Counted from the first letter of the stretch, positions 4,597 to 32,000 are shown. The stretch is DNA of 32,000 nucleotides from Haloferax volcanii DS2 (GCF_000025685.1 NC_013968.1:1-32000); one strand, 5' to 3'. Translations and numbers: made by a program. The notes: generated by a model from the letters alone, not told the origin.

Positions 4597-4601
4597 AGAA
4601 T

Positions 4602-11179: not shown

Positions 11180-11189
11180 CTCTGGAGAG

Positions 11190-12608: not shown

Positions 12609-12627
12609 GTATATGATTCCATATATG
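12609..12627. repeat. 19-mer GTATATGATTCCATATATG, left arm of inverted repeats flanking the par operon
   Basis: Its exact reverse complement lies at 14064-14082. It overlaps the parA promoter and start region. Confidence 0.8.
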
Positions 12628-12636
12628 AATCTGTAT

Positions 12637-13536: not shown

Positions 13537-13538
13537 CC

Positions 13539-13925: not shown

Positions 13926-14063
13926 AATCGCGCGACTGGTACTCTGCGAATTGAACTGCTAATCTGTTTTCGGCTCTGTTCGGTAGTCGAAGTTAGGACG
14001 GCCTGGAGCTGTTCGAGTAGCGTCGCAGTCATCTCTCAAGACGGCAGTCCGCTCTTGATTGAG

Positions 14064-14082
14064 CATATATGGAATCATATAC
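14064..14082. repeat. 19-mer CATATATGGAATCATATAC, right arm of the par-flanking inverted repeat
   Basis: Exact reverse complement of 12609-12627. Confidence 0.8.
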
Positions 14083-14581
14083 GCCTGTAATTCCGGTTTC
14101 AGAGGGGGGGTTTCCAATGCATTACCCCGAGGGTTTCTGTCCTAAGATACCCCTCCAGATTCACCGAGGAAAGTCGGTCCTTCACCAGAGGGTGATTCTA
14201 AGATTCAAAATTCTCGGGGAGAGCGAAAATTACTCAGAAAAGATACCGTTTTTGGAAGCTCGTTGTCGGCGAGAGACAACGAGGATTAGTAAAATATCGG
14301 CCCGTCGCCGGATTTTGACGATGAATCCTATGCCGCTATACCGAATCCCGGGGGAAACGTCACCACAGTTTCGGCGTTTGGATTCCGTTGCGTGGCTTAT
14401 TTTCACACTGTTTGAATTTGAATAGGCTCTTGTCTTGCGGTTTTCGAATCTATAGTGGTGAGAAAGCTAGGAAAAATTTTCTGAGTGACATATAATCAGA
14501 ATCGACAGGCTTCTCCTATTTCATTATTATAATGCTTGAACAGAAGACACGCAACACTTCCATCCTCCGAGATTGTGGGTG

Positions 14582-14834
14582 TTTCTGGCCGATGCGTTCG
14601 GATATCGGACTGTCTTCTCTTGATTAGGTGTGAACGGTCGGGTCGACTACACCGAGCGAAACCTCATCGAAGTGGTTTCACACGTTCAAAATGAGAGTCG
14701 ACCGTTTCCACAACTCGTGGGTGGGCAGTCGGCTGAGCGTCCGCCAGTGGCATGCAGTGTTTATCCATTACTATAATTTTCAGCGACCGCATCAATCGCT
14801 CGACGGAAGAACGCCAGCTCAGGAGGTTAACTAG
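14582..14834 (+). pseudogene. IS6-family transposase gene remnant (3' end only, with an in-frame stop and a frameshift)
   Basis: Hand translation gives 'FLADAFGYRTVFS*LGVNGRVDYTERNLIE', then a +1 shift, then 'WFHTFKMRVDRFHNSWVGSRLSVRQWHAVFIHYYNFQRPHQSLDGRTPAQEVN*'. The second part matches the C-terminal signature of IS6-type DDE transposases. Confidence 0.7.
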
Positions 14835-15069
14835 ACAGTTCCTGTGGTCTGCATCAATTATATCCTCCAAGTTTTTGGGACGGTAGCAAAAGATTGACAC
14901 CTAGCGATGACGTATATATTTTCCATGTACGCGCAGACAATTGGCCCAAATCCTGGTGGACTTCCAAATTCAGAACTAGAATTAATTGTAGTGGTAGTCG
15001 CTATAATCGTACTAGTCGATCTGATTTACATTTTATATTCAAAGAAAAAGAAGAACAGTTGAAAGAGGC

Positions 15070-15138
15070 TTACTCAGGGTCGATTGTTACTTTACGTTTA
15101 TTGTGTTTCGTAATGTCGTAGTCACAAGTTCGATAAGC
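15070..15138 (-). pseudogene. Displaced native 3' end (22 codons plus stop) of the peptidase-like gene at 2344
   Basis: Joining 3195 to the reverse complement of 15138..15070 continues the frame as ..KTKY-AYRTCDYDITKHNKRKVTIDPE-stop. The GC content is low like the parent gene. Confidence 0.65.
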
Positions 15139-15143
15139 ATACT

Positions 15144-16544
15144 CAGTACATCACAAAGCCTGTTAGTTGAGACGTCTGCTTGCTGAAGATGTGTCCAAGC
15201 AACCACAGCAAGCAGACGATGAAATCCACGAGGACCAGCTCCTTAACTTCCTCGTCAACTCTCTTGACGAGGAAGTTGCTCTCTCACTCGCTGAAAACGC
15301 TGAACTCGATGCTGAAGACATCTACGAGGTCCTCGTCGGCGCCTGCGCCGACGGGACCTCGGTCTCAACGCTCTGTGAGAGAAGCGAAGATGCACCCCAC
15401 GAAAACTCCGTTCTCTACCATCTCCGCACTAAATTCGATCTAGAAACGCTCGAACAGGTTGGCAACATGCTCCTCCAGAAAGACGTTCTCGACGTCCTTC
15501 CCCAGCAGGTGGAGGTCTGCGCAGACCTCCACCTGCGGCCCTACTATGGTGACGAAGACGACACGGACGGCCTGTATCACTCACAAGCGAAGCGTGGAAC
15601 CACCGCGTTCCACGCGTACGCGACGCTGTACGCACGCGTGAAGAACAAACGCTACACGCTGGCGGTGCGCCGTCTCGAAGACGGCGACACCGCCAGCAGT
15701 GTCCTCGCAGAGTTCCTCGGTATTCTCGACGGCCTTGACCTCGGTGTCAAGGCCGTCTATCTTGACCGCGAATTCTACGACAGCAAGTGTTTGACGCTGC
15801 TTCAGGCGCACAACCACGCGTACGTCATGCCGATCGTCCGCTGGGGACGGACGATCAAGCGAGAACTCTCGGAAGGGTGGAGTCGCGTGATTCAGCACAG
15901 TCTGACGGCGAGACTCGACGGTCACAGCTGGACCGTCGAGTTTCCCGTCTACATCGACTGTACCTACCAGAACGGACGGTACGACGAACATGGCGTGGCG
16001 CGTCACGGCTACGCCGCTGACGCGCCGTTCATCGACTCACCACGAGACGCTCGATACCACTACGCGAAACGCTTCGGTATCGAGGCAAGCTATCGACTCT
16101 CTGAACAAAGTATCGCGACGACCTCGACACAAAATCCGGTTGTACGGCTGCTGTACGTCGTGGTGAGCTTGCTGTTACAGAACGTGTGGCGGTATCTGCA
16201 CTGGGAGTACGTGGCGACGCCCCGCCGAGGCGGGCGTCGCCTCTGGCAGTGGCCATTCAAGGAGTTCATCAACATGATCCGACGGGCAGCGTGGACGGCC
16301 CTCGCGACGCGTCGGGCCGTCCCCGCGAACCGGCCACCGGACGACCGGTTCCACCGGTAACTCCCGACCGGGCTAGCCAACGGTGGGAGTGGCGACGCTG
16401 TCGCGTCGGCGGCAGCCGCCGCCGACAGCGACGGCTCTCCGCCGATCCGTCCATGATTCTCTCGTCGAAACCGCCAATGCAACCGCTCGGCCACAGAATT
16501 CAGGCTTCAGAGACAGCTAGGCGAGGATGCTTTGTGAGGTACTG
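15144..16544 (+). mobile_element. ISH3-family-like insertion sequence, copy 2 (1401 bp)
   Basis: Same inverted repeats as copy 1. The flanking pentamers are ATACT (15139-15143) and ATTCT (16545-16549). Confidence 0.95.
15167..16360 (+). CDS. DDE transposase (ISH3-family-like, 397 aa)
   Basis: Protein identical to that of 3380..4573. Confidence 0.9.
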   Translation: MRRLLAEDVSKQPQQADDEIHEDQLLNFLVNSLDEEVALSLAENAELDAEDIYEVLVGACADGTSVSTLCERSEDAPHENSVLYHLRTKFDLETLEQVGNMLLQKDVLDVLPQQVEVCADLHLRPYYGDEDDTDGLYHSQAKRGTTAFHAYATLYARVKNKRYTLAVRRLEDGDTASSVLAEFLGILDGLDLGVKAVYLDREFYDSKCLTLLQAHNHAYVMPIVRWGRTIKRELSEGWSRVIQHSLTARLDGHSWTVEFPVYIDCTYQNGRYDEHGVARHGYAADAPFIDSPRDARYHYAKRFGIEASYRLSEQSIATTSTQNPVVRLLYVVVSLLLQNVWRYLHWEYVATPRRGGRRLWQWPFKEFINMIRRAAWTALATRRAVPANRPPDDRFHR

Positions 16545-16875
16545 ATTCTGCTTTAACTTCGACCTTCGGGACGCCATCGTTGAAGGTGTGTGAGACGGTG
16601 TGGTCTTTTGTCTCCGCGGTCGTGTCGTAGGCGAGCGTCATCATCGGGTTGTCGTTATCGTGCCACTTTGCCTCGCCAGCGGGAGTGTAGTCGACGTTCG
16701 TGATTTTACCCGATTCGTAGCGTTCGAGTCCCTGCCCGTTGAGGTACATGACGTGGAACTCTGCGCCGTTGAGGTCGACGTCACCCTCGAATAGCTCGCG
16801 GGCATCCTCGTCGTCCGCGAGTCGGTGGACGTTCTCCGCATCTGCGTCAACATTGGCGTTGATGTCTACTGCCAT
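16545..16875 (-). pseudogene. 5' portion (110 codons) of the split cassette-driven gene; continues at 4602..5341 (+)
   Basis: Starts MAVDINANV at a cassette ATG (16875). In the present arrangement the frame runs into the IS and ends 12 codons later at 16507. Confidence 0.7.
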
Positions 16876-16927
16876 CACATCTACAACATGGATTCCCACA
16901 CTTATAAAAATTACGCCATAACGTAAC
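16876..16927 (-). promoter_or_regulatory. Conserved promoter/start cassette
   Basis: On the minus strand: GTTACGTTATGGCGTAA palindrome, then TTTTTATAAG, TGTGGGAA and CCATGTTGTAGATGTG, immediately before ATGGCAGTAGAC. Confidence 0.55.
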
Positions 16928-17017
16928 AGAGTTGGGGACAGGTGGTGTTCAAAATGGATGTCGCTCGTCGGCAGGTGCCAAAATAAAATGGGTTCAGCGC
17001 CCGACACTCGGGCGCTC

Positions 17018-17512
17018 TTACTCGTCGGCGGCGATTGGGGTACGAACGACCTTCGTATCGCTATCAACGTCGTCACGACGCTTTTGAGAGTCTAATTCGG
17101 CTTTGCGGTTGCCCAGTTCCTGCGACTCAGATATATCCTCACGTGCGACTGCCCGGACGTTTCCGCTATCAAATGCTACGATAGGGCGGTAGTCGTCGTA
17201 GCCGCTGATTGCGTGGGCGGTGACGGTCCCGGTTAACGCGCCATCTAGCGGGGTATCGACTTCGACACGTGTTCCGTTTGGGAAGTCGACCGTCACGGCG
17301 TCCTCGACGGCGTTGATGGGTGCAAGTTCGGATTCCGGTCGGCCTGCCCGCTCGCGCGTTGCACCGCCAACTCCAACGGAGTAGGTGAACTCAAAGGGCA
17401 CGTCAACACCGGCATCGGTAACAAACCGAACCTTGCCGACTGCAATTTCACCGTCGTGAATCAGAGCTACGAGGTCGCCCGGAGCAAACCGTGCGACGCT
17501 GTCGGTGCTCAT
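17018..17512 (-). CDS. Hypothetical protein (164 aa)
   Basis: ATG at 17512 overlaps the upstream stop in an ATGA junction. Third gene of a minus-strand operon headed by a cassette. Confidence 0.6.
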   Translation of the reverse strand: MSTDSVARFAPGDLVALIHDGEIAVGKVRFVTDAGVDVPFEFTYSVGVGGATRERAGRPESELAPINAVEDAVTVDFPNGTRVEVDTPLDGALTGTVTAHAISGYDDYRPIVAFDSGNVRAVAREDISESQELGNRKAELDSQKRRDDVDSDTKVVRTPIAADE

Positions 17513-18852: not shown

Positions 18853-18907
18853 CTCCAGTAGTCGCAATGCATAGCTTTTTCATCTTCGCAGGTGGTTGTT
18901 CTACCTA

Positions 18908-19882
18908 ATGAGCGAGTCCAATGTCGAGAAGGGTATTCTCGAAGCGTTTCGACGTGGGCTCAAAAGGGCGGTGAGCGACGCCCAGGGCGTCAATTGGAAT
19001 GGTGTTGATTCGATTAAAGAGCACAAACTGTTGCTTATGGGGATCCGGAATTTCCCCGAGGTCCAAGACCACGTTACTATTCAGTGGTACTTGGACGGTG
19101 ATATGCTCCCCCATCTTGACGATCAACCAGGTCCGATTCAGACAAACGCTGGTGTTTCGAGTGGGCCAATACCTGAAGTAGATGAAATTAAAGAGTTCTA
19201 TGCGGAAGAGATGGTCGAGCCCTTAGAGGATATACTAACGGCAGACACATTCTATTGGCTAAAAACATATTACGAGAATAGGGAAGTTCCATTCAAACAG
19301 GCGTATCTCGCAAACATGGATATACTCTTGCACATCACACAATGTGCTCGGTTCTGTGACCTAGAGTATCCTAATACGACGCTGCCAGAGGACCTAGTCT
19401 CACCTATCGAAGAGGCGTCAATCGATTTAAAGAGAGAGCTTATCAAATATCCACTATTCCGGAATTTACCACCGTTTGTGACCGAGTTCACACGCGTTGC
19501 GACACAAGTGATGACTTGGTTGGAAGAACAAGATCTTGAGAATCCAGATGATCGTGCCGAGTATACAACGCTACTCAACCATTTGGGTAGTTTCTATTAC
19601 AAAGGAGTGTGGCGACCGATCTCTAATCGAATTGGATACTACACCATTCATGGGCCGGCCGAAGAAGACGACCGAGAGTTCCATATCACCAATCTCAAAC
19701 GAGCTCGGCAAAACTTCCTGAAACTTTCAAATCAATTCCGTAGTCGAGCTAATGATTACGGTCTCCGCGTCGAAATTCGTAATGAGCGAATTCCGAAGCT
19801 TCGACCAGAAGAACGGAACTTCCAAGAGCTATTGCAGTGGGAACCTGAGGACGACACTGCTGAGCAAGTGACGACCGCGTAG
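18908..19882 (+). CDS. Hypothetical protein (324 aa) on a low-GC island
   Basis: Long ORF in an A/T-rich segment. I recognised no motif. It lies 4 nt upstream of the next ORF. Confidence 0.65.
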   Translation: MSESNVEKGILEAFRRGLKRAVSDAQGVNWNGVDSIKEHKLLLMGIRNFPEVQDHVTIQWYLDGDMLPHLDDQPGPIQTNAGVSSGPIPEVDEIKEFYAEEMVEPLEDILTADTFYWLKTYYENREVPFKQAYLANMDILLHITQCARFCDLEYPNTTLPEDLVSPIEEASIDLKRELIKYPLFRNLPPFVTEFTRVATQVMTWLEEQDLENPDDRAEYTTLLNHLGSFYYKGVWRPISNRIGYYTIHGPAEEDDREFHITNLKRARQNFLKLSNQFRSRANDYGLRVEIRNERIPKLRPEERNFQELLQWEPEDDTAEQVTTA

Positions 19883-19886
19883 CTAC

Positions 19887-20411
19887 ATGGATATCTCGGA
19901 TCTACCTTATCCGGATACCTCTCAATTTGAACACTACGGAATCGATAAACGACCAAGTAGGATATACATCGGTCGTGAATTCTTGAAATTCAGATACCAT
20001 GAAAACCCGTCAGATGATATAACGGTCACGAAACAGAACTACGTAGACGAATTTTTCGAACTTGTAGAAGGAATTGAACTACCGTTTCAAAAAGTATATA
20101 TAAACCAATCTACACTAACAGAAGTCGCTGTTTGGCTCCACCGTAATCAATCAGAGTTAGCAGCTGAGAAGTGCTTGACTGAAGCATTTGGTGAGAGTCC
20201 ACTTATAATTGAACCGACAACAACTACTGTCTTTCAGTCGGCGATTGACGCATTTGTCAAAGATTCTGATAAAGATCCGAATTTTGGAGAATACCTTGAC
20301 TATGCAACAATGCAGGAAGCCCAGATTGAACATATCCTCACTTGGGACTCTGACTTCTGTAGGTTCGGAGAACAGATAACGATGTTACCACATAAGATGT
20401 GGAATATGTAG
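19887..20411 (+). CDS. Hypothetical protein (174 aa) with a PIN-like C-terminal motif
   Basis: 'LDYATMQEAQIEHILTWDSDFCRF' resembles the C-terminal D..A...T.D.DF signature of PIN nucleases. The N-terminal acidic position is not evident (VYINQSTL). Confidence 0.55.
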   Translation: MDISDLPYPDTSQFEHYGIDKRPSRIYIGREFLKFRYHENPSDDITVTKQNYVDEFFELVEGIELPFQKVYINQSTLTEVAVWLHRNQSELAAEKCLTEAFGESPLIIEPTTTTVFQSAIDAFVKDSDKDPNFGEYLDYATMQEAQIEHILTWDSDFCRFGEQITMLPHKMWNM

Positions 20412-20883: not shown

Positions 20884-21090
20884 TTAGAACAGCACAGATT
20901 TGCCGTAGCTCCCCACAACGAGTAGCAGCGCGAGCATCAGTACGAGGGCAGTGAACTTGCCGATGAGGTCCGCACCAAATAGGACCGCAGGGAGGGCAAG
21001 TGCGGCGACGAACACCGCGAAATATTTGATGAAGTCGATGCTGACGCGGACGGCTTTAACGAGTGGTGTTTTGATGATCTTCGGAATCAT
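20884..21090 (-). CDS. Small membrane protein (68 aa, two hydrophobic helices)
   Basis: 'MIPKIIKTPLVKAVRVSIDFIKYFAVFVAALALPAVLFGADLIGKFTALVLMLALLLVVGSYG'. The longer tracked ORF upstream of this Met is R/S/T-rich and implausible. Confidence 0.55.
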   Translation of the reverse strand: MIPKIIKTPLVKAVRVSIDFIKYFAVFVAALALPAVLFGADLIGKFTALVLMLALLLVVGSYGKSVLF

Positions 21091-21133
21091 GGTGTTTTCG
21101 TGGCCACGACGTGCGGAGGTGCGTATGGATATC

Positions 21134-21388
21134 TTACGTGCCCCCCTCTTCCGCCGCCTCGAGTAGTTCGTCAAGGTAGGCGGCGAGTTCATCGTCGTCG
21201 GGTTGTGGTCGGTACGGTGAGTCGGGGTCAACCGAGAGCAAGAGGTACACGGCGATTTCGTAGATCTCGTTGGTTTCGAGTCCGCGTTCATCGCGGAGAT
21301 CCTTCATTGCACCGTGTACTAAATTACTGACATGAAAATGCGGTCGTGTCCCATTGTTCCCTGCCATGGTTCGTTGTTGAGTCGGCAT
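21134..21388 (-). CDS. Small putative RHH-like DNA-binding protein (84 aa; alternative start at 21367)
   Basis: 'HFHVSNLVHGAMKDLRDERGLETNEIYEIAVYLLL' has a strand-helix-helix pattern and an acidic tail. It is divergent from the transfer-like operon. Confidence 0.5.
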   Translation of the reverse strand: MPTQQRTMAGNNGTRPHFHVSNLVHGAMKDLRDERGLETNEIYEIAVYLLLSVDPDSPYRPQPDDDELAAYLDELLEAAEEGGT

Positions 21389-21541
21389 ACCAAAAATGTG
21401 GTGTGACGCCCACTAATAGGTCTTGGACGTTGTACCAATATGTCCATACACCACAGTACCCAACTTTTATGGTAGACAGACGACATGAATTAGACAGGCG
21501 GTGAGGGGGTGAGGCCCCGATGACCCCGCGACCAACTGACC

Positions 21542-22072
21542 ATGACAGAATCAAACGACGTCCCCAAAGATGGGGACGTAACCGAAGATGAGACGGCCCC
21601 GCTATACGCGCGGGTGGCCGAGCGTGCGGACAAAAAGTTTGAACAATTCGAGAGAAGAGTCGCAGAACGCCTCTCGGTTCGACAGGCCAAGGCGCTGACG
21701 ACCATAGTCGGAATTACAGCACTCGGGTCGACGAGTGCAGCAGCACAGTCGCTGGGCGAGTTTGGCGATGCCATGTGCGGAACTGGCCTCGGTCAGCTCA
21801 TCGGCTTCGTGTTCATTGGGGCCGCCATGTACCTATTCATCAAGGCGGTGATGAAGGGCATGACCGCGATGGAGAAGATGAACTCGACCAAGCAGGGCCA
21901 GCAGCACGAGGGTAAACAGCAACTCGTCGACGCTGGAACGACCTTCTCCGGTGTGTTCATTCCGGCACTCGCCGCAGGGGTCACGGAAATTATGGGCATG
22001 AACACGGTATCCTGCCTTGCGCCGTCCTCGTGGAGTGTCGTTGGAACGGTCATCGTCGGTGTCCCCTTCTAG
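21542..22072 (+). CDS. VirB2/TrbC-like pilin candidate (176 aa)
   Basis: A long hydrophilic leader is followed by the hydrophobic segment 'ALTTIVGITALGSTSAAAQS', ending in an A-x-A-like site. Two hydrophobic helices then flank a basic/polar loop 'KGMTAMEKMNSTKQGQQHEGKQQ'. Confidence 0.55.
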   Translation: MTESNDVPKDGDVTEDETAPLYARVAERADKKFEQFERRVAERLSVRQAKALTTIVGITALGSTSAAAQSLGEFGDAMCGTGLGQLIGFVFIGAAMYLFIKAVMKGMTAMEKMNSTKQGQQHEGKQQLVDAGTTFSGVFIPALAAGVTEIMGMNTVSCLAPSSWSVVGTVIVGVPF

Positions 22073-22133
22073 GGGGCAACGATGAGGACCAATAGTATCG
22101 CTGTTCGGCTGACTCAATCTTTAATTTCAATAG

Positions 22134-23411
22134 ATGACCGGGAGTAACAACGCTCGTGTCGGCGGTGGTGGCTTCCGCCCACCTTCGGGCGGTGGCGGGT
22201 CACCACCCAATGATGGTGGTGGTGGAGGCGGTGGTGGCGGGGGAAACGTCGTTCCCGAGTTGGATATTGACCCGGTCGAGTTCGTCACCGAGGCGTTCGC
22301 CGGGTTTGTCGAGTCGTTCGCGAACGGTATCGGTGATGTTCTGGATGCGTTCCAGCACCTCGTGTTCGGTATCAACGCACCTGGTAGCACTACCGACCCC
22401 GCGACGTGGGGAGCACCCGAGGGCGGCCTCTGGTCCGGCGCATGGTGGCTATTCTGGACACTAGCCCCTCTCGCCATTGTCGTGTTGACTATGCAGGCGA
22501 TGAGTGTCGCCGGACGAGAGAATACCCGCGAAGGGAAGGCGAAACTGTGGGAGATCGGAAAGGCCGCCGTGATGGTCTTCGTCGGGTGGCCGGTCGCAAT
22601 CGGCGGCCTCCACCTATTCGACGCCATCTCGATGGGCCTCGTCCCAGATGGGACAGAGTTCATGTCGACGCCAGGGAGCGTCTCGAAACTCGGCCTTGGC
22701 CTCGTAGTCGGCGCATGCATGCTGGCATTTCAGTCGGGAACGATGGTCGTGGCAATTGGCGTGGTCCTCGCAGAACACGTTCTGCTCATCGCCGCTGTCG
22801 CAGGCTGGCCTATCTGGTGGGCGATGAAGCCTGCGGACAACGGATTTTCGAATGCGGCGTCGGGTATTGGCCTCTCGATGTACTTCGGGGTCGCTGGAGC
22901 AAAGGTCGTTCAAGCGGCTATCGCTGCTCTCATCTTCAACACCAGTTGGGAGATCGCGAACGTCAGCGAGACGTTCGTTACGGTGGTCGCATCGGGCGTC
23001 GGCCTACTGGTTGCGTTCGTTGGTATTCCCATCGTCGTTGGGCGCAACTTCATACCAGAGGCGATGACGGTCCTTGGGTCGCCCGCAGTCTCGGTAGCCG
23101 AGGACTACGCTACTCGCGGTCGTGAGACTGCGGCAGACGCGGCCAACGAGTATGCGTCAAGTGCGCGTGCGAACGTGCGCTCTAAGATGCCCAACTCGGT
23201 CCCGTCGCCGTCGTGGGCATCGGGTTCGAGTAGTCGGTGGGCCGGCGAGGTTCCCGAAGACTACTCGCCGTCCCCCGAACCGGGCGCATCAACGAGCGGG
23301 TCAACCATGAGCGAGACAGCGCGCGAACTCCCCGGTGAAACGAGTGAGAGTCAAGCAAGCAGTCAGAAGCGACGCATCGACAACCGCCTCAATAACAGAG
23401 GTGCGTACTGA
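22134..23411 (+). CDS. VirB6/TrbL-like polytopic membrane protein (425 aa) with a poly-Gly N-terminus
   Basis: It has roughly 6-7 hydrophobic helices. The N-terminus is 'GGGGFRPPSGGGGSPPNDGGGGGGGGGGN' and the C-terminal tail is hydrophilic and S/P-rich. It sits between the pilin-like gene and the VirB4-like gene. Confidence 0.55.
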   Translation: MTGSNNARVGGGGFRPPSGGGGSPPNDGGGGGGGGGGNVVPELDIDPVEFVTEAFAGFVESFANGIGDVLDAFQHLVFGINAPGSTTDPATWGAPEGGLWSGAWWLFWTLAPLAIVVLTMQAMSVAGRENTREGKAKLWEIGKAAVMVFVGWPVAIGGLHLFDAISMGLVPDGTEFMSTPGSVSKLGLGLVVGACMLAFQSGTMVVAIGVVLAEHVLLIAAVAGWPIWWAMKPADNGFSNAASGIGLSMYFGVAGAKVVQAAIAALIFNTSWEIANVSETFVTVVASGVGLLVAFVGIPIVVGRNFIPEAMTVLGSPAVSVAEDYATRGRETAADAANEYASSARANVRSKMPNSVPSPSWASGSSSRWAGEVPEDYSPSPEPGASTSGSTMSETARELPGETSESQASSQKRRIDNRLNNRGAY

Positions 23412-23447
23412 CGCATTCGGTCTTTTATACTCATACTTCAACGCACA

Positions 23448-26402
23448 ATGACGCAGAATACTCAACACACGATTGACGCACAGATTCAGAAAGACCCCGG
23501 ACAAATCGTCCCACCTCGGGTCGACACGAGCATCGACATTACAGATCACCTATCGTTGAAGGACCTCAAGACGCTCGCCCCAGCTGGCGTTCTCACGACT
23601 GCTGGTGTCGGTGGGCTGTTCACCGGCAACCCAACGCTTGGTACGGTGGGCCTCGGTGCGGGAGCTGTGGCCGGCGTCGGGGCTATCGGAATGACGGTGA
23701 CGAACCGCTGGTACAACTCTCCCCGAGAGCGCGTTGCGGACTGGTATTCACACATCCGGTCAGATGACGAGAACACCGCCCTCGCGGATGTGACGGGCGT
23801 CGCCGGGATGACCGACGATGGGTTAGTCGAGATGGCCGATGGCCGCGTCGTCGGCCTTGTCCGCGTCGACCCACAGAACGCGGCGCTCCTCGATGACGGT
23901 GGGCAGAACTCGCTGGCCGCGTCCCTGTCGTCGGCTATCGACGAACAAGTCCGTGATATTCCGTTCCGCATCTACTCGACGACGCGCGACGAGAAACCGG
24001 GGACGGTCGTCGCACAGCGATATGAGGAACGGGCGCTCGACCCCACAACTGATGTGGACCAGTCCGATGTTCTGCTTGGGACCGCTGACTGGCTGACTGA
24101 TGGCGACATTCCGAACTGGAACGCTCGCGAGTGGAAGCACTACGTCGCGGTCGATGCGGCTCCGAGTGACGCCCTCGGGCCGACCGACGAATCGCTGTGG
24201 GACATAGCGAACCCACTCGTTGACACGGGCGTCGAGACAGTGTCTGACGAGCAGGTCTGGAAGAAGACAAACAAGAGAGTGCAGACAGTCGTCGACGCGA
24301 TCAACTCTGTCGGAGAACTCGAAGCAGAGCGCGTTGAGGCCGCCGAAGCCCTATCTATGGCCCGAAACTACTGGGGTCGAACCGATGAGGTCGGTGGTCC
24401 TCTCGCTGGTGATGTGCTCGCTGGTGAAACGGAGGCAGGGCACGTGGTCAACCCCGAGACGTTCGACGAACAGCGCGGGTGGGTCGACCTCGGTGACGAG
24501 TTCGCCCGGACACTCTGGATAGCCGAATATCCAACTGAGACGGAGTCCATGTGGCTCTCGCGGCTGACGAGTATCCGAGGAATCAACGTGGACCTCTGTG
24601 TCAACGCCGACCCAGTCGACAAGGATGCTGCGATTCATGAGTTGTCGCAGAAAATCGCTGACGTAGGCTCCGAGGGGATGGATCGGCAGGAGGACGGTGA
24701 CGTCACCACAATGGACGTTGACGACGCGAACGACGCGAACGTCAAGATGCGGAAGCTACTGCGAGACACCCCAAGTCAGCCGTGGGACGTGTCGACTTAC
24801 GTGGTCGTGCGGGCTGACAACGAGGCCGCGCTGAACACGGCTGACGAGACGCTGTCTGCTGTCGAGTCGTTCGATGGCGCGAAGCACGCAGCGCTTGATG
24901 AAGCCGAACAAGACGTGCGTGACCTGCTGACGACGACGCCCGCGAACGTCACGCCTATCGCACCATCACTCGTCCAAGGCACGCTCCTGCGCTCTGCGTC
25001 GCCGCTGACAACTGATGTCTGGAACGACGAAACGCCCGCCGACAAGTCGCGACGAGTGCCGGGCGCTGTCATCGGGTCGATGTTCCCGTTCTGTGGTGTG
25101 TCGATCCAAGAGGAATCGGGAATGGACTGGGGCCGGAACGAACAAAACGGGTCGCTGCTCCGTCTGTCGCCGTTCGAACGCGGCGGTGCGCCGCATCAGC
25201 TCACCATCGGGCAGACGCGAGCGGGCAAGACCTACTCAGCGTCGAAAGCGGCGATGCGATGGTGGTTGGAGCGTGACGGCCGGACGCTCATCACTATCGA
25301 CACTCAGCAGGGATTTGACGGCGTCACGCGACTCTGCAATGGGAAACATATCGAGGTTGACGCGAGTCAGTCGGTCAACCCGCTCCGCATCACAGCGCCG
25401 TCTGACGACCCGCAGGACTGCGCCCGCGAGTTCAGAATGACCGTCGAGGAGACGGTCGCGTTCTTGACTAACCTGCTCCGGTCGGATGGCGTCGACAACG
25501 CTGACGAGTTCGCGCCAATACTCTCACAGGCCGCCGAGTCGACGTTGTCCCGCGCTGGCATCGATGCACACCAACCCGAGACGTTCAATAACGGCAATCC
25601 CAACCTCTCAGACTTCATCGACACGCTCATCGACATGAACGAGTCGCCGGAGAAGTACACCTGGAGCGACGACGGCCATGAGGTCGAGTCACACAAAACG
25701 CAGGTCGGCGAACTCCTGACGAAATTGCGGTCGTTCCAAGAAGGCGGCAAGTACGAGGCGCTGGTCGGGGAGGATGAGATAGACATTGTCAGCGATGATG
25801 TAGAAATGGCGTACCTTGACCTGCACTCGCTGTCAGGGTCCGACGACGCCGAAAAGAGCGCGATGTTGATGCTGATGCTCTCACAGGTCCGCAAGAAAAT
25901 CAAAACCGCACCCGGTGAGACGGTGCTGATGCTCGACGAGGCCCACGTCCTACTCGACAACCCACGCACGGCAAACTGGTTGCAGAAGGCCGCTCGCGAG
26001 TTCGCTCGCTACGATGCAAGTCTGTGGTTCCTCTCACAATCCCCGAAAGACTTTGTCTCGGCTGACTCGGAGACAGACGCTCGTGACACGATTCGCGGGC
26101 AATGCGGGATGGTTCACATCTTCCGAACACCTGCCGTCGACGACGATGTTCTCGCAGAGTTCGGTCTGAACCAGACCCAACGCGAGTTCGTTCGCGAGAA
26201 AGCCGTCCGTGGCAAATCCGGACGTGGATACTCAGAGTGTCTAATTTACGCTGAGGACATTGCCGGGTGGATTCCGACCTACGTCGAAACATCACCCGCT
26301 GAGGACGCGGTGTTATCATGGTCGCGTGACGATGGCGACGAGGCGCTCGCGGATGACCAAGGACAAGACCGAACGGTCGCCGCTGCGGGAGGTGACGATT
26401 GA
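23448..26402 (+). CDS. VirB4/TrbE-like transfer ATPase with an N-terminal VirB3-like membrane hairpin (984 aa)
   Basis: The N-terminal hydrophobic pair is 'APAGVLTTAGVGGLFTG..TVGLGAGAVAGVGAIGMTV'. Walker A is 'GQTRAGKT', Walker B is 'VLMLDEAHVLL', followed by 'LWFLSQSPKDF'. Confidence 0.75.
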   Translation: MTQNTQHTIDAQIQKDPGQIVPPRVDTSIDITDHLSLKDLKTLAPAGVLTTAGVGGLFTGNPTLGTVGLGAGAVAGVGAIGMTVTNRWYNSPRERVADWYSHIRSDDENTALADVTGVAGMTDDGLVEMADGRVVGLVRVDPQNAALLDDGGQNSLAASLSSAIDEQVRDIPFRIYSTTRDEKPGTVVAQRYEERALDPTTDVDQSDVLLGTADWLTDGDIPNWNAREWKHYVAVDAAPSDALGPTDESLWDIANPLVDTGVETVSDEQVWKKTNKRVQTVVDAINSVGELEAERVEAAEALSMARNYWGRTDEVGGPLAGDVLAGETEAGHVVNPETFDEQRGWVDLGDEFARTLWIAEYPTETESMWLSRLTSIRGINVDLCVNADPVDKDAAIHELSQKIADVGSEGMDRQEDGDVTTMDVDDANDANVKMRKLLRDTPSQPWDVSTYVVVRADNEAALNTADETLSAVESFDGAKHAALDEAEQDVRDLLTTTPANVTPIAPSLVQGTLLRSASPLTTDVWNDETPADKSRRVPGAVIGSMFPFCGVSIQEESGMDWGRNEQNGSLLRLSPFERGGAPHQLTIGQTRAGKTYSASKAAMRWWLERDGRTLITIDTQQGFDGVTRLCNGKHIEVDASQSVNPLRITAPSDDPQDCAREFRMTVEETVAFLTNLLRSDGVDNADEFAPILSQAAESTLSRAGIDAHQPETFNNGNPNLSDFIDTLIDMNESPEKYTWSDDGHEVESHKTQVGELLTKLRSFQEGGKYEALVGEDEIDIVSDDVEMAYLDLHSLSGSDDAEKSAMLMLMLSQVRKKIKTAPGETVLMLDEAHVLLDNPRTANWLQKAAREFARYDASLWFLSQSPKDFVSADSETDARDTIRGQCGMVHIFRTPAVDDDVLAEFGLNQTQREFVREKAVRGKSGRGYSECLIYAEDIAGWIPTYVETSPAEDAVLSWSRDDGDEALADDQGQDRTVAAAGGDD

Positions 26403-29400
26403 TGGGCCTGCTCGACTCGCTTCGCGGGACGGAACAACGTGAGGAAGCAGGGTACGACGCGGTGGAGATAGATGCCGACCTCGCTACCTCGCTGACAAGT
26501 CCAGGCGAACGCGACGCTATCAGCGTGCGCCCGAACAAGGACAATGGCGGGATTGAGGCGATGACGAACGTCCTCGAATCGCTGCATTCGGTGGAGACAG
26601 ACTCACCCCGGTTGTCGCGGTCAGTCCAGAACGTCTCACCAGCTCATTCGTTCGAGATGCGATACACGCGCGAGCAGGGTGGCGGCGACCGCGTCGTGAC
26701 GATGCAGTACGTCGCAGGCGACGACCGTACCGATGGAACGCTCAAGCGTCAGTTGCAGACGCAGTATCCCGACTCCCAGCTTGACCGTGTCTCGTCCGAA
26801 GTCATCCCGGAGTGCGGCGTCGACGGTCGCTACATCGCGGGTGCGACGCTCCAACTTCGTCGGTACACGCTGTATCCCATCAAAAACCTCGACCTACCGG
26901 GGTTCTCGACGGACCCGACGGGGGCGATCCTGGAGGAGATGGTCGGCACGCAAGACGAATCCGAGACGGACGCCGACGTCGTCGTGCAGGTGATGTTCAA
27001 GCCCGCTCGTCGGACGTGGACCGAAGGCGTCGACGGCGGCCACGGACTCGTCGACGACGATGACGAGGCGGTGAACGGCACGCCGGGAATCAAGACGCTC
27101 GCGATGAACCTGCGACAGCCGACGTACAAGAAAGAGCGCCGCTTGTTTACTCGTGAGACTGTCGAGTATCCCCCCTCGAAGGTCGACAAGTCGGTCGCCT
27201 CCCTGCTCGAAGAACAGCAGGGAGAGAAGGGGTGGCGACTCTGCCTGCGCGTGTTTGCCATCAGCGACGACCCTTCCGTCGCCATCTCGCGGGCGTCGAC
27301 GACCGCTGGAATGTTTCGCAATTTCTACGAGAGCAACAGCGAACAAACCTTCGTACCGGACCCGCTCGACGAGGGTGAAGTTCGAGAGACTGCGTTGCGG
27401 GCAGCTGACCGGGAGTGGATCAACCACGGGATTGTGAAAGCACAGCGTGAGGTGGCCGGTCTGCTGAACATCCCCGAATCGCAGTACGTCACGACGAACA
27501 AGATGCGCTGGTCGATGAGTCGACCGGGCGAGGGCGTCCCGCCGGGAACGCCTCGGTTCGACTTTGCCGAACACAACGTCGCAGGCGCGTCGCACGAGGA
27601 GGAGCAAGTCGCCATGCTTGACGAGTCTGGTCGTGGCGACCCCTTCTGGTACGGGTTCGGGAGTCGGCACGGCGTCGAAGTCGGCATCGAACCGGACGTG
27701 CTGAATGTCCACCAGTTCGTCGGTGGCGGGACCGGGAAGGGTAAGACGACGTATCTGACCAACCTGTCGAGTCAAATTATGGAACGCGGCCACGGGGCGA
27801 TGATTTTTGACCCGAAGGGGAAGGACGCTGACGAGTTCATCCGCGAATGGCCCGAGGACCGTGACCGCGAGGACTTCGTGTTCGTCGACCTCACAGACGA
27901 GTACGAGAACAAGGTCCGGTTCAACTTCCTCGAAGTGCCGGGGGACGTCGAACCGGGCACGCGAAAGTTCGCGTCGACGGTCGAAGCGCTCTGTGACGAC
28001 CTGACGGCGATGATTAGTCAGGCGGGCGGTGACGACAACTACTGGGGTGCGCTGATGGACCGCGTCGCTCGGACACTCATCCGGGGGATGGCGAAGTCGG
28101 GACGGACCTGCACCCTGCTCGACCTCGCGTGCGTCTGCACCAACCCGGACAACCGCGACAAATTCGCTGAGTGGATGAGCGAGGAGCGGATGCACTTCAT
28201 CGAGGACGCCGCCGAGCGGATTCGGGAGAAAGAGGACAGCGACCTCGAACCGCTCGCGGGCCGTCTCGACCAATGGGTCCAGAACGACGCCATCCGTGAC
28301 CTCATCGCCGCTCGCGAGTCGACCGTTAGCATCAGCGAGGTCGTGCGCGACGGGAAGGTCGTCGTCGTTCGGAACGCGCCGTCAAGCGGTGAGACGGAAA
28401 AGCGACTGTTCGCGACGGCACTCATCCGTCGGGCGTGGGTCGCCGCTCGCGAGAACCGCGACTCGCCGCCGTTCTACGTCGTGCTTGACGAGTTCGACAG
28501 TATCGTCTCAGAACAGTCGGACATCCACAGCATCCTGTCGGAAGCACGCGCGTTCGACTTCTGCCTGACGCTGTCGTGTCAGAACCCGTCGAACCAACTC
28601 CCCGAGCAGGTCCAGAAGGCCGTCGAGAACCAATGTGAGACGTTCATCTCGTTCAACCCCGGTGGGAAGGACGACGCGCGTCTCATCGCCGCTCAACACT
28701 CGCCCGAAGTGTCCTGGGAGGACCTGACGAACCTGAGCAAGTACAAGTTCTTCATGCGAACCCACGACGACACCGACACGCTGACCCACTCGTACAAAGT
28801 CGATGCGTTCCCGCCAGTCGGGGAAGTACGTCGCGAGGTCAACGGTGTGGCCGGGATGACCGACGCGGAACTTGACACGCTGAAACGCGAGTCCGTCGAG
28901 CGCTACGGCGAACCGATGGAGAGTGCTGAACAGCAGAAGCGTCAGTCCCACTTCTACGACCTCGGGGGCGTCGGACCAGACGGCCACGACGGTGGCAACC
29001 TCGAACTCACCGATGAGCGTGCAACCAAACTACTCGCGGCGCTGTTTCGCCTGCGTGTCTCTCAGGACCTCGATGACGGCGAACCTATCCAGATGGTCGA
29101 CGCGAAAGAGGCAGTCCGTGAGCGCGTCGACGTTGACGGCCAGCACGTCGATACGCTCATCCAACGGGCGAACTCTCGCGACCTCGTCAACGTGTCGAAC
29201 GACGCGATGACCATCGACCTCGCACCTGCCGGACGGGAACAACTGTTCTCGTCGGGGCAGTCGGGCAATGCGGGTTCGATTGCTCATCAGGCGGCGATGG
29301 AACCAATTGCCCACGACCTCGCGGAGATGGGCTACCACGTTCGTGTCCCCGAGCAGACGGGTGACGAGATGCCCGACCTGTTTGCCGAGTGCCCGGTCGA

Positions 29401-30316
29401 CACGGGCGGCGAGACGTTCGAGGAAGCAATGGCGAATCGCGACCGGCTGAAAGAGCAGTACCCCGACGTGTTCGCGCTGAGTAAGGAGCGTGATGTTGCT
29501 GTCGAGTTCGAGAAGGCGACGCGGTCGGCTCCGGCGCAGATAGGGCACAACCTTCGGAAAGCCGTCGAGTCGGGCGACCATTGCCTGTTCATCGTGAATC
29601 AGTCTGACGACGATGGCGAGCGCTTCGCTGATGCCGCGCGACAGCTCTCGGAGAAACTGGCCGACCCGATGCTGACGTACACCGAACGGCGGACACCGAA
29701 CGACGTCGAGGCCCGCTATCACCACCGCGACGACAAGTGTCCGGCAGTCCACCAGGAAGGCGCTGAGGCCCCGAGTAAGTTCGTCGCCATTCCCGGTGAC
29801 GTGACCTACCAATGGGTTCTCGATGGAGACCTCGTAGTGCTGCGAGATTCGGATGGGACCGAGTACACACAGTTTGCTGACGTTGACGCGTGGACATCGC
29901 GGTCAGCGACCGATTGGCCCGCTCGATACCGCGTTGGCGATGACGGCCACGTCACGGTCAGCGGTGACTCGCTCGACGAATACGAGTCAGTCGACGCGCT
30001 CCGAGAGGACTACACACTCGTCTCCGCTCCGTACATCCCCGAGATGGAGTTCGCGGGTGCTATCGACGAACTGGGCGCACTCCCGACGCGCGACGAGTGG
30101 ACTATCGCAGTCCTGCCGAACGACAATATCGGTCTGCAACGGTACGACCGAGTCGACGACACCTGTTACCCGCTTGTCGAGGGTATTGAGGACCGTAGAG
30201 ACAGGTCCCGCGACGAAAACCCCCACACCGAAGGCGGGGAAGACACCGGTCCAGATGCGGTGCAACCTGACGACGGCGACGACAGCGACGGCCTCTGGTC
30301 CGACTCGCTGCTCTGA
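26402..30316 (+). CDS. VirD4/TraG/TraD-like (FtsK-HerA superfamily) ATPase fused to a winged-helix and nuclease-like C-terminal region (1304 aa)
   Basis: The ATG at 26402 overlaps the upstream TGA. Walker A is 'GGGTGKGKTT', with 'MIFDPKGKD'. Walker B is 'FYVVLDEFDS', with 'FCLTLSCQNPSQL'. The C-terminus has 'LTDERATKLL..IDLAPAGREQL' (wHTH-like) and 'GSIAHQ..MGYHVRV..MPDLFAE..VAVEFEK' (endonuclease-like). I saw no N-terminal membrane helix. Confidence 0.7.
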   Translation: MGLLDSLRGTEQREEAGYDAVEIDADLATSLTSPGERDAISVRPNKDNGGIEAMTNVLESLHSVETDSPRLSRSVQNVSPAHSFEMRYTREQGGGDRVVTMQYVAGDDRTDGTLKRQLQTQYPDSQLDRVSSEVIPECGVDGRYIAGATLQLRRYTLYPIKNLDLPGFSTDPTGAILEEMVGTQDESETDADVVVQVMFKPARRTWTEGVDGGHGLVDDDDEAVNGTPGIKTLAMNLRQPTYKKERRLFTRETVEYPPSKVDKSVASLLEEQQGEKGWRLCLRVFAISDDPSVAISRASTTAGMFRNFYESNSEQTFVPDPLDEGEVRETALRAADREWINHGIVKAQREVAGLLNIPESQYVTTNKMRWSMSRPGEGVPPGTPRFDFAEHNVAGASHEEEQVAMLDESGRGDPFWYGFGSRHGVEVGIEPDVLNVHQFVGGGTGKGKTTYLTNLSSQIMERGHGAMIFDPKGKDADEFIREWPEDRDREDFVFVDLTDEYENKVRFNFLEVPGDVEPGTRKFASTVEALCDDLTAMISQAGGDDNYWGALMDRVARTLIRGMAKSGRTCTLLDLACVCTNPDNRDKFAEWMSEERMHFIEDAAERIREKEDSDLEPLAGRLDQWVQNDAIRDLIAARESTVSISEVVRDGKVVVVRNAPSSGETEKRLFATALIRRAWVAARENRDSPPFYVVLDEFDSIVSEQSDIHSILSEARAFDFCLTLSCQNPSNQLPEQVQKAVENQCETFISFNPGGKDDARLIAAQHSPEVSWEDLTNLSKYKFFMRTHDDTDTLTHSYKVDAFPPVGEVRREVNGVAGMTDAELDTLKRESVERYGEPMESAEQQKRQSHFYDLGGVGPDGHDGGNLELTDERATKLLAALFRLRVSQDLDDGEPIQMVDAKEAVRERVDVDGQHVDTLIQRANSRDLVNVSNDAMTIDLAPAGREQLFSSGQSGNAGSIAHQAAMEPIAHDLAEMGYHVRVPEQTGDEMPDLFAECPVDTGGETFEEAMANRDRLKEQYPDVFALSKERDVAVEFEKATRSAPAQIGHNLRKAVESGDHCLFIVNQSDDDGERFADAARQLSEKLADPMLTYTERRTPNDVEARYHHRDDKCPAVHQEGAEAPSKFVAIPGDVTYQWVLDGDLVVLRDSDGTEYTQFADVDAWTSRSATDWPARYRVGDDGHVTVSGDSLDEYESVDALREDYTLVSAPYIPEMEFAGAIDELGALPTRDEWTIAVLPNDNIGLQRYDRVDDTCYPLVEGIEDRRDRSRDENPHTEGGEDTGPDAVQPDDGDDSDGLWSDSLL

Positions 30317-30440: not shown

Positions 30441-30713
30441 CGCGCAAAGGGCCTAGGCCCCTTTGATACTGACCCCTGAGCGATAGGTTCTGTTGACCCC
30501 CAGACGCTGATGGTGTGGAGATACTGAGTCACTGGCTTAACCAGTGGTTCAAGACGAACTGAACGCTCATCAGTCTACTTACCGTGCGACTGAGACTAGC
30601 TATGGAATTACCAATATATGTCATACACTTGCCTACAACGGCTTTCCAAACACGCTCGTCTTAGGGCGTAACCGAGCGGGAGATATACTCCACGAGCGGC
30701 TCATCAAGATAAT

Positions 30714-32000
30714 CAGCACATCACAAAGCCGGTTAGTTGAGACGTCTGCTTGCTGGAGATGTGTCCAAACAACAGCAGCAAGCAGACAGTGAAATTCACG
30801 AGGACCAGCTCCTTAACTTCCTCGTCAACTCCCTTGACGAGGAAGTTGCTCTCTCACTCGCTGAAAACGCTGAACTCGATGCTGAAGACATCTACGAGGT
30901 CCTCGTCGGCGCCTGCGCCGACGGGACCTCGGTCTCAACGCTCTGTGAGAGAAGCGAAGATGCACCACACGAAAACTCGGTTCTCTACCATCTCCGCACC
31001 AAATTTGACCTTGAGACGCTCGAACAGGTTGGAAACACGCTCCTCCAGAAGGACGTTCTCGACGTCCTTCCCCAGCAGGTGGAGGTCGTTTCGGACCTCC
31101 ACCTGCGGCCCTACTACGGCGACGAAGACGATACAGACGGCCTGTATCACTCACAAGCGAAGCGTGGAACCACCGCGTTCCACGCGTACGCGACACTCTA
31201 CGCGCGTGTGAAGAACAAACGCTACACGCTGGCGGTGCGCCGTCTCGAAGACGGCGACACCGCCAGCAGCGTCCTCGCAGAGTTTCTTGGTATTCTCGAC
31301 GGCCTTGACCTCGGTGTCAAGGCCGTCTATCTTGACCGCGAATTCTACGACAGCAAGTGTTTGACGCTGCTTCAGGCGCACAACCACGCGTACGTCATGC
31401 CGATCGTCCGCTGGGGACGGACGATCAAGCGAGAACTCTCGGAAGGGTGGAGTCGCGTGATTCAGCACGACCTGACGGCGAAACTCGACGGTCACAGCTG
31501 GACCGTCGAGTTTCCCGTCTACATCGACTGTACCTACCTGAACGGGCGGTACGACGAGCATGGGGTGGCGCGTCACGGCTACGCCGCTGACGCGCCTTTC
31601 ATCGACTCACCGCGAGACGCTCGATACCACTACGCGAAACGCTTCGGTATCGAAGCGAGCTACCGACTCTCCGAGCAAACGATTGCGACGACTACGACAC
31701 AGAATCCGGTCGTACGGCTGTTGTACGTCGTGGTGAGTTTGCTGTTACAGAACGTCTGGCGGTATCTGCACTGGGAGTACGTGGCGACGCCCCGCCGAGG
31801 CGGGCGTCGCCTCTGGCAGTGGTCGTTCAAGGAGTTCATCAACATGATTCGACGGGCAGCGTGGACGGTCCTCGCGGTGCGTCGGGCCGTCCCCGCGAAC
31901 CGGCCACCAGACGACCGGTTTAGCCGGTAACTCTTGACCGGGCTAGCCAGCGGTGTGAGTGGCGACGCTGTCGCGTCAGCGGCTGACCGCCGCCGACAGC
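30714..32000 (+). mobile_element. ISH3-family-like insertion sequence, copy 3 (diverged; right end lies beyond the window)
   Basis: The left IR CAGCACATCACAAAGCC starts at 30714. A 1401-bp element would end near 32114. Confidence 0.9.
30737..31930 (+). CDS. DDE transposase (ISH3-family-like, 397 aa), diverged copy
   Basis: Same length as copies 1 and 2, with about 15 amino-acid substitutions. Confidence 0.9.
   Translation: MRRLLAGDVSKQQQQADSEIHEDQLLNFLVNSLDEEVALSLAENAELDAEDIYEVLVGACADGTSVSTLCERSEDAPHENSVLYHLRTKFDLETLEQVGNTLLQKDVLDVLPQQVEVVSDLHLRPYYGDEDDTDGLYHSQAKRGTTAFHAYATLYARVKNKRYTLAVRRLEDGDTASSVLAEFLGILDGLDLGVKAVYLDREFYDSKCLTLLQAHNHAYVMPIVRWGRTIKRELSEGWSRVIQHDLTAKLDGHSWTVEFPVYIDCTYLNGRYDEHGVARHGYAADAPFIDSPRDARYHYAKRFGIEASYRLSEQTIATTTTQNPVVRLLYVVVSLLLQNVWRYLHWEYVATPRRGGRRLWQWSFKEFINMIRRAAWTVLAVRRAVPANRPPDDRFSR

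Follow-up and report, generated by a model that had tools for sequence, protein, structure and literature searches.

Organization and conservation of the operon

The window analysed here, a stretch of 32,000 nucleotides (nt) from Haloferax volcanii DS2 (GCF_000025685.1, NC_013968.1:1-32000), carried a four-gene operon resembling a type IV secretion system (T4SS), and this observation, made in a preliminary description of the same sequence, was confirmed. The four open reading frames (ORFs) were all located on the plus strand, and were p176 (21542-22072, 176 aa), a candidate VirB2-type pilin precursor; p425 (22134-23411, 425 aa), a putative TrbL/VirB6-like membrane protein; p984 (23448-26402, 984 aa), a VirB4 ATPase; and p1304 (26402-30316, 1304 aa counted from ATG), which scored as an ATPase of the type IV coupling protein (T4CP) type. 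The spacing within the operon was 61, 36 and -1 nt, the ATG of p1304 overlapping the TGA of p984 by one base (the mechanical ORF of p1304 began at TTG 26399). These positions agreed with the co-directional, tightly packed arrangement given earlier, including the overlap of the last start with the stop before it. All four ORFs were intact, and Walker A and Walker B motifs were complete in both ATPases. The scan for promoters and terminators used bacterial models and was not meaningful for an archaeal host.

The plasmid carrying the operon was most likely H. volcanii pHV1, which is matched by plasmid pHGLR3 of H. gibbonsii LR2-5 according to Tittes et al. Region 20884-30316 showed 95.2% identity to pHGLR3 over its full length, and the protein nearest to the p1304 product was one of H. 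volcanii, with 98% identity. A survey of haloarchaeal loci, as suggested in the preliminary description, found the order p176-p425-p984-p1304 in all eight related loci with enough upstream DNA, which came from Halorubrum, Haloarcula, Halomarina, Halococcus, an uncultured metagenome-assembled genome of the Halobacteriales and pHGLR3. These four families were the only ones common to all compared loci; neither a relaxase nor a VirB5/8-like protein was observed among the conserved neighbours. A homologue of the T4CP-like protein was present on 88 haloarchaeal plasmid records (tblastn, E<=1e-5), and among the matches listed and the genera named (22 genera were unnamed) it occurred on haloarchaeal plasmids only.

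The ratio of nonsynonymous to synonymous substitution rates (dN/dS) against pHGLR3 was 0.18 for p176, 0.18 for p425, 0.12 for p984 and 0.15 for p1304, so the operon genes are kept by purifying selection despite a plasmid riddled with insertion sequences (IS). Given these low values and the same order in eight of eight loci, the four-gene run was not due to chance.

The VirB4 ATPase

A Walker A motif GQTRAGKT (residues 588-595) and a Walker B motif VLMLDE (826-831) were identified in p984, and in the NCBIfam search the protein matched VirB4_plasma (6.1e-30), conju_CD1110 (9.4e-23), VirB4_CagE (4.9e-22) and TraC (6.4e-16), with scores that all fall under the narrow equivalog cut-offs. HerA reached 7.9e-4, more than 25 orders of magnitude behind, and a HerA identity was rejected for p984. 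The sole sequence match in the PDB was 4ag5, the VirB4 of Thermoanaerobacter (3.1e-8). The VirB4 N-terminal family PF03135 (CagE_TrbE_VirB) was not reported for p984, while the conju_CD1110 alignment reached residue 278; in the VirB4 of a second, divergent clade, that of a Natronomonas gomsonensis plasmid, PF03135 was matched at E=0.053 only. From these matches p984 is a VirB4.

The N-terminus of p984 contained a conserved DPxQLVPPxVDT motif, then a Gly-rich hydrophobic hairpin at about residues 42-85. The hairpin was marginal in the Haloferax proteins (Kyte-Doolittle about 1.6) and strong in other genera (2.1-2.8), being conserved and more hydrophobic in nine of ten homologues. It would act like a fused VirB3-type anchor that tethers p984 to the membrane. 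VirB3 and VirB8 have been reported absent in archaea, and transmembrane (TM) helices have been reported on about half of the Ced/VirB4 ATPases, both of which a self-anchoring p984 would fit. According to a 2026 survey of haloarchaeal plasmids (PMC13532300), neither ATPase has TM domains, and this is contradicted by the hairpin of p984 and its homologues. The VirB4 ATPase with an N-terminal membrane hairpin proposed from the sequence alone was thus borne out by the family models and by the conservation of the hairpin.

The pilin candidate

Homologues of p176 were hard to find. A word-indexed search gave two, and a family of 20 members was obtained through homologues at the syntenic loci and a profile search. 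Pfam PF18895 (T4SS_pilin) was matched by 16 of the 20 members, with a best E-value of 7.5e-6. The protein consisted of a long variable N-terminal leader, a hydrophobic signal-like segment and a pair of hydrophobic helices, at about 83-113 and 118-150, with a short loop rich in Lys and Gln between them.

In the family the signal-like segment ended in an invariant Ala-Gln, with the consensus VAA|QSAG; in the window it read AAA|QS (Q69), a putative signal-peptidase site at which the precursor could be cleaved. It resembled the signal-peptidase-I site AVA|QA of the archaeal conjugative pilin TedC and the QSAG with which the mature VirB2 of Agrobacterium begins, both given by Beltran et al. The family matches, the conserved AxA|Q site and the two helices together upheld the earlier suggestion of a VirB2-like pilin, and p176 is predicted to be a VirB2-type T4SS pilin precursor.

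Residues C79 and C158 were invariant in all 20 members of the family, each close to the outer end of one of the helices, in the mature part of the protein (21746-22072). A disulfide between them, tying the ends of the pilin together, is conceivable.

The VirB6/TrbL-like membrane protein

The N-terminus of p425 was Gly-rich and its tail hydrophilic and rich in Ser, and the protein had five or more hydrophobic segments. With HMMER, searched exhaustively, 119 relatives were obtained at E<=1e-3, and a direct match to Pfam TrbL_3, which is described as a "TrbL/VirB6 plasmid conjugal transfer like protein", was present in one of the 92 relatives scanned (7.9e-7). The PDB profile search with the p425 family returned no VirB6.

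The assignment came from the Natronomonas gomsonensis plasmid, where the protein encoded two genes upstream of VirB4 scored 1.2e-138 on TrbL_3. The p425 family profile aligned with this protein by hhalign at 96.7% probability (E=3.3e-10, 262 columns), and the alignment took in an extramembrane PAPG...W...P...W motif; this was a single profile-sequence comparison, of a kind in which membrane-protein composition can inflate the score. Because of this match to a strong TrbL_3 member, p425 was accepted as a TrbL/VirB6-like polytopic membrane protein, as first described, and is presumed to form the membrane channel.

The coupling-protein-like ATPase

The N-terminal and motor parts of p1304 comprised residues 1-859 (26402-28978, plus strand). 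The Walker A motif was GGTGKGKT (443-450) and the Walker B motif YVVLDE lay at 693, within residues 691-698; G447, K448, D696 and E697 were invariant in the alignment of homologues. Pfam TrwB_AAD_bind was matched at residues 428-731 with 43.1 bits, above the gathering threshold of 20.5, which sustained the VirD4/TraG-like assignment made earlier. NCBIfam TraD models matched p1304 around Walker A only, and its relatives are named TraM-recognition-domain, VirD4 or TraG/TraD family proteins in RefSeq.

The HerA-type Pfam models scored 15 bits (DUF87) and 14 bits (HerA_C) on p1304, and a HerA/FtsK reading was rejected for this protein also. HerA/FtsK roles were the alternative named in the preliminary description, and T4SS models outscored HerA/FtsK models in both ATPases.

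Residues 1-400 (26402-27600) formed a conserved soluble domain with many invariant residues, and every homologue had it tagged as PF26449 in its precomputed annotation. This domain occupied the place of the usual N-terminal membrane anchor of a T4CP. Judged by these domain matches, p1304 scores as an atypical soluble T4CP-type ATPase.

In one relative, on a contig of Natronococcus jeotgali (L009, 3519-7544), the coupling-type gene was split into two ORFs of 458 and 881 aa, probably by a frameshift or as a pseudogene.

The C-terminal tail of the coupling-protein-like ATPase

The AlphaFold2 model of the C-terminal 445 residues of p1304 had a mean predicted local distance difference test score (pLDDT) of 81 and a predicted template modelling score of 0.82, and was composed of a winged helix, an alpha-beta unit and a beta-rich domain. 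These corresponded to a winged helix-turn-helix (wHTH) DNA-binding-like domain (residues 860-945, 28979-29236), a nuclease-like module (946-1095, 29237-29686), and a beta-rich domain (1096-1260) followed by an acidic disordered tail (29687-30316), all on the plus strand.

The winged helix was modelled with the order helix-helix-helix-strand-strand at a pLDDT of about 90. Its Foldseek matches to MarR, DtxR and WH domains were weak, and one homologue carried the JGI label of an ArsR-family regulator.

The core of the module was alpha-beta-beta-beta-alpha-beta with a pLDDT of 86-96 (helix 101-117, strands 120-122, 134-137 and 173-178, helix 185-197 and strand 201-207 in model numbering). D992 (model D133), which belongs to a PD motif, was placed where strand 2 begins, and E1035 and E1037 (model E176 and E178) on strand 3. 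Together with H962, these residues were invariant in all 39 p1304 homologues, at 34-63% identity; the only other invariant residues of the tail in that alignment were G958, W1138 and P1210. The predicted layout would be that of the PD-(D/E)xK nucleases, save for Glu in place of Lys. The matches of the module to known nucleases were weak, with Pfam AHJR-like (E=0.024-0.06, in two of 27 members only) and, by Foldseek, BsaWI in the PDB (E=0.33) and a viral nuclease/resolvase (E=0.8-1.2).

The H...(P)D...ExE core was retained in four divergent proteins or clades, represented by the Natronomonas gomsonensis plasmid (L012), H. gibbonsii pHGLR1 (L013), Haloarcula marismortui pHMA155 (L014) and a plasmid of Halobaculum magnesiiphilum (L015). 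For the coupling-type protein of L012 the hhalign E-value was 2.5e-14. The module was found by tblastn on 86 haloarchaeal plasmid records, and among 41 records listed all but a handful were under conjugal-transfer, T4CP-like, DUF87 or ATP-binding annotations.

In L015, a 3197-aa "DUF87 domain-containing protein" (5488-15081) carried the nuclease-like module at about residues 1168-1303, and no VirB4 was annotated beside it.

Against the Haloarcula protein, dN of the winged helix and module was about 0.8 while that of the motor was about 0.19, and the catalytic-like residues were unchanged; the winged helix gave a dN of 0.78 against L005. A fast-evolving wHTH and module on a slow motor, with fixed residues, is the pattern that would be expected of a specificity-determining unit of DNA recognition and cleavage.

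The beta-rich domain contained W1138 and P1210, and its strands were modelled at model residues 233-299 and 345-398, with the pLDDT of the tail below 50. No family match was found for p1304 from residue 1096 onward.

Relaxase and mobility

Searches of the sizeable ORFs in the window, which covers 32 kb of a plasmid of about 85 kb, revealed no relaxase family. In PLSDB/MOB-suite, pHGLR3 was typed as non-mobilizable, as were 85 of the 88 plasmids with a coupling-protein homologue. Both results agree with the statement in the preliminary description that the window held no recognisable relaxase. Guglielmini et al. regarded archaeal T4SS as "MOBless", probably through unknown relaxases, and placed archaeal VirB4 in the mating-pair formation (MPF) class MPF_FATA. 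According to Beltran et al. and two reviews (PMC12857230, PMC12282955), none of the conjugative plasmids of archaea has a known relaxase.

Surroundings of the operon and related loci

On the minus strand at the promoter side of the operon lay a small membrane protein with two TM segments (20884-21090, 68 aa from an internal Met; mechanical ORF to 21291) and a small acidic protein of 57-84 aa (21134-21307 or 21388). The former had two hydrophobic segments, a homologue on pHGLR3 (80 aa in RefSeq), a weak one in L007 and no family match. The latter was conserved in L001, L005 and L007, where it preceded the pilin gene immediately upstream, and is a possible regulator; the Pfam scan of 21134-21388 gave no match. 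Of the divergent gene pair noted earlier, both members were thus recovered, while the call of a ribbon-helix-helix protein found no Pfam match.

An Orc1/Cdc6 gene (101-1327) and a second ORF (1621-2058) had coordinates equal to those in the pHGLR3 record. A ParA gene (12607-13536) and one IS4-type transposase were also present in the window. A HicA-type toxin homologue (5497-5742, minus strand) and its small upstream partner (5743-6006) matched two pHGLR3 genes, annotated as a toxin of the HicA family and as a hypothetical protein.

Three ISH3-family elements were identified. The copies at 3186-4601 (minus strand) and 15139-16554 (plus strand) were 100% identical and inverted, and the third (30709-31983, plus strand; NCBIfam transpos_ISH3, 1.5e-113) formed the downstream boundary of the operon and lay outside the system. 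The segment of about 10.5 kb between the first two copies was inverted relative to pHGLR3, and the homologue of pHGLR3 WP_244661374.1 was split into 4640-5341 (plus strand) and 16507-17076 (minus strand). The split gene and the inverted segment point to an insertion followed by an IS-mediated inversion.

Two co-directional ORFs of 328 and 174 aa (18896-20411) formed an island of 45% GC without Pfam or NCBIfam matches and without a pHGLR3 counterpart. Upstream of the operon pHGLR3 had instead a type I restriction-modification system, a DNA methyltransferase and an SprT-like protease. The island, adjacent to the T4SS, has the look of a slot for variable cargo or defence genes.

The plasmids L012, L013 and L014 represented a second divergent clade of haloarchaeal T4SS, with a TrbL_3 protein, a further membrane protein, a VirB4 of about 735 aa and a coupling-type protein of 1390-1470 aa that ended in the same C-terminal H..PD..ExE module. 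In PLSDB, L012 and L013 were assigned to MPF_T and nevertheless typed as "non-mobilizable", and L014 had no MPF typing. The clusters of pHGLR1 and pHGLR3 differ, so H. gibbonsii carries two different T4SS clusters.

In L003 (14741-15964), and at the counterparts in L004 and L010, a primase-polymerase was encoded two genes downstream of the coupling-type gene; that of L003 contained the helix-bundle domain of NrS-1 polymerase (E=1.9e-28). In six loci a small minus-strand protein followed directly after the coupling-type gene, and its L009 member had weak wHTH and coiled-coil Pfam matches. Neither the primase-polymerase nor this small protein was present in the window.

Comparison with known systems

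A T4SS of this kind has already been published, and RefSeq already names both ATPases, so the operon is not a new kind of system. The H. volcanii genome paper of 2010 described VirB4/VirD4 homologues on an island of the chromosome and took them for a possible system of DNA secretion, and relaxase-less archaeal T4SS were published in 2011-2013. The 2026 survey (PMC13532300, Microbiol Spectr) reports clusters of VirB4 and VirD4 with putative VirB2/5/6 among 133 Halobacteriales plasmids related to pHdsl9-3, both ATPases being present on 93% of them. As in the window, those plasmids have an adjacent VirB4-/VirD4-like pair after small and polytopic membrane proteins, an Orc1/Cdc6 replication module and no reported relaxase. 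A difference is that neither an ArdC-like nor a XerA gene was found in the window; pHGLR3 has an SprT-like protease. The wHTH and nuclease-like tail seen in p1304 is not described in the survey, and a description of such a tail on a coupling ATPase was not found in the literature searched.

An experimental precedent is Thermococcus pT33-3, which is presented in the reviews (PMC12857230, PMC12282955) as the one plasmid of the Euryarchaeota for which conjugation has been demonstrated, and for which mutation of the VirB4-like and VirD4-like genes abolished conjugation. From the same sources, pT33-3 shares the two ATPases with the window, has no identifiable relaxase and differs in being the plasmid of a hyperthermophile.

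The Sulfolobales Ced system and the Thermoproteales Ted system share with the operon a VirB2-like pilin, a VirB6-like channel, a VirB4-like ATPase and the setting of a single-membrane cell, and in Ted, as here, the gene for the channel has that for the pilin immediately upstream. They differ in being chromosomal DNA importers induced by DNA damage, without a T4CP-type ATPase, CedD being VirB4/HerA-like. Among bacteria, monoderm MPF_FATA systems supplied the best VirB4 models for p984, those of the Mycoplasma integrative and conjugative element and CD1110 families, and the Clostridioides CD1115 model gave a weak match to p1304. These bacterial counterparts differ from the operon in that their relaxase is separate, their T4CP is anchored in the membrane and a cell-wall hydrolase is usually present. 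Monoderm bacteria are generally without a VirB2 pilus, whereas a pilin candidate was present here.

Function of the operon and alternative explanations

The operon is probably a minimal single-membrane T4SS of a haloarchaeal plasmid family, used for self-transfer of the plasmid by conjugation. This interpretation was drawn from its composition, the intact motifs and low dN/dS, the synteny in eight of eight loci, the plasmid context and the precedent of pT33-3. In the proposed mechanism, the p176 pilin would be cleaved after AxA and, with VirB4 supplying the power, built on the VirB6-like channel into a pilus or a structure for cell contact; the coupling ATPase would recruit plasmid DNA and feed it to the VirB4/VirB6 channel, and the DNA would be exported to a recipient cell. 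With less assurance, the fast-evolving winged helix might recognise a site on the plasmid, and the adjacent H...PD...ExE module might cut or nick the DNA there, replacing a separate relaxase.

Several results weigh against these assignments and against conjugation. The p176 and p425 proteins of the window had no direct Pfam or NCBIfam family match and were linked through homologues only. The AlphaFold2 model of p176 showed a helical hairpin with a pLDDT of only 51, so its Foldseek search was uninformative, all hits being helical hairpins of a generic sort, ATP synthase c subunits among them. In the PDB profile search p1304 matched DotL (8.6e-5), HerA (1.5e-4), FtsK (0.025) and TrwB (0.08), a thin preference for T4CP, and the usual T4CP membrane anchor was missing, with no TM segment in p1304 or in any homologue checked (8-9). 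A search for short inverted repeats found no notable oriT-like repeat beside the operon. Plasmid pHGLR3 is lost spontaneously in culture, and nothing suggests that it spreads; known gene exchange in Haloferax proceeds by cell fusion. No report of haloarchaeal plasmid transfer by such a system was present in the literature searched, so the earlier remark that conjugation had not been shown in haloarchaea appears correct, and no paper was found that links pHV1 to a T4SS function. As for the nuclease-like module, no Foldseek match in PDB or BFVD reached E<=0.001, no significant match came from the Pfam, PDB-profile, PHROGs or NCBIfam searches, and the canonical Lys of ExK is replaced by Glu. The restriction enzyme BamHI has Glu at the same position. 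Because no library confirmed the fold, the nuclease is a lead and not a finding.

The wHTH and the H...PD...ExE module could be the relaxase equivalent of archaeal conjugation, a site-specific cutter or nicker within the translocase, and this idea is put forward only tentatively. The further picture, equally conjectural, is that one polypeptide recognises the plasmid, opens it and pumps it into the VirB4/VirB6 channel. Relaxases of the MOB_C class (TraX of pAD1, MobC of CloDF13) are of the PD-(D/E)xK type and nick oriT with no covalent intermediate detected, and the pair HerA-NurA, in which an FtsK/HerA motor is joined by a nuclease, is a proposed source of the single-stranded DNA for Ced/Ted transfer. 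The two ideas would be united in p1304 in one polypeptide. The likeness is one of motif and topology only, as the module had no detectable sequence or Foldseek similarity to MOB_C, NurA or another nuclease family.

A Ced/Ted-like exchange of DNA, either import or two-way transfer between aggregated cells, is the main alternative, though an unlikely one. In its favour, the only archaeal machines of the VirB2/VirB6/VirB4 type whose direction has been tested, those of Ced, import DNA. About half of the Ced/VirB4 ATPases have TM helices of their own, like p984. Ced also requires two ATPases, CedB and CedD. The second, coupling-type ATPase is therefore present as the preliminary description stated, while its argument that this speaks for export is weakened, a second ATPase alone being no proof of it. 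The operon is, however, borne on a plasmid and co-inherited with plasmid backbones, while Ced and Ted are chromosomal repair systems, and p1304 scored as a T4CP and not as CedD (the Ced-specific NCBIfam model CedD was essentially unmatched, with E=0.0012 for p1304 and 0.068 for p984). Sequence-specific wHTH and nuclease-like domains would fit donor-side selection of the substrate, and pT33-3, which likewise has VirB4 and VirD4, is self-transmissible according to the reviews. It is rather improbable that the operon serves or exploits the cell-fusion mating of Haloferax through contact, bridges or plasmid passage instead of autonomous pilus-mediated conjugation. In H. volcanii, mating conditions induce a TraD-like gene on the chromosome, and haloarchaeal elements that carry fusexin hold VirB4 and TraG/VirD4, for which a conjugative-like, fusion-dependent mobilisation has been proposed. 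Against this, neither a fusexin nor a fusion gene turned up in the window, the pilin and channel protein suggest a dedicated conduit, and laboratory mating is bidirectional and not tied to pHV1.

A role apart from DNA, with the T4SS exapted for protein secretion, adhesion and biofilm or contact-dependent antagonism, has a low probability. Bacterial T4SS without a relaxase are often non-conjugative, and Makkay et al. cautioned that conjugation need not be the role of the TraD-like clade of archaea, for which a relation to biofilm is possible; yet the lack of archaeal relaxases is thought to reflect relaxases not yet known, p1304 carries DNA-binding-type and nuclease-like domains, and no effector-like gene was conserved beside the operon. 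The operon is very unlikely to be the decaying, inactive remnant of a formerly conjugative element on an IS-ridden plasmid. Such decay would accord with the three ISH3 elements and one IS4-type element in the window, the IS-mediated inversion and the split gene, the ISH3 copy 390 bp downstream of the operon and the split T4CP-like gene of L009, whereas the four ORFs are intact, their motifs are complete and dN/dS against pHGLR3 is 0.12-0.18. There is hardly any likelihood that the ATPases are genome-packaging motors of a virus-like or vesicle type, as proposed for ORF25 of pR1SE: the HerA/FtsK/VirB4 ATPases of haloarchaeal plasmid-vesicle elements do resemble VirB4, TrwB and viral packaging NTPases, but VirB4-specific models beat HerA by the margin given above, a T4SS pilin and a TrbL_3-type protein are syntenic with the ATPases, and no homologues of capsid or vesicle proteins were conserved nearby.

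Plasmid self-transfer by conjugation therefore remains the interpretation that we favour. If the tail of p1304 is inert, the locus would simply add a further annotated case to the family of T4SS clusters already published for haloarchaeal plasmids. Its value lies in a tractable host, a complete four-part assignment and the conserved nuclease-like tail. Haloferax is the most tractable archaeal genetic model and the operon is carried on a small natural plasmid, so haloarchaeal conjugation could be tested there. The reviews (PMC12857230, PMC12282955) give no known mechanism that brings DNA to the channel in archaea and treat this as an open problem; the conserved nuclease-like tail is a concrete candidate for the missing step of archaeal DNA processing.

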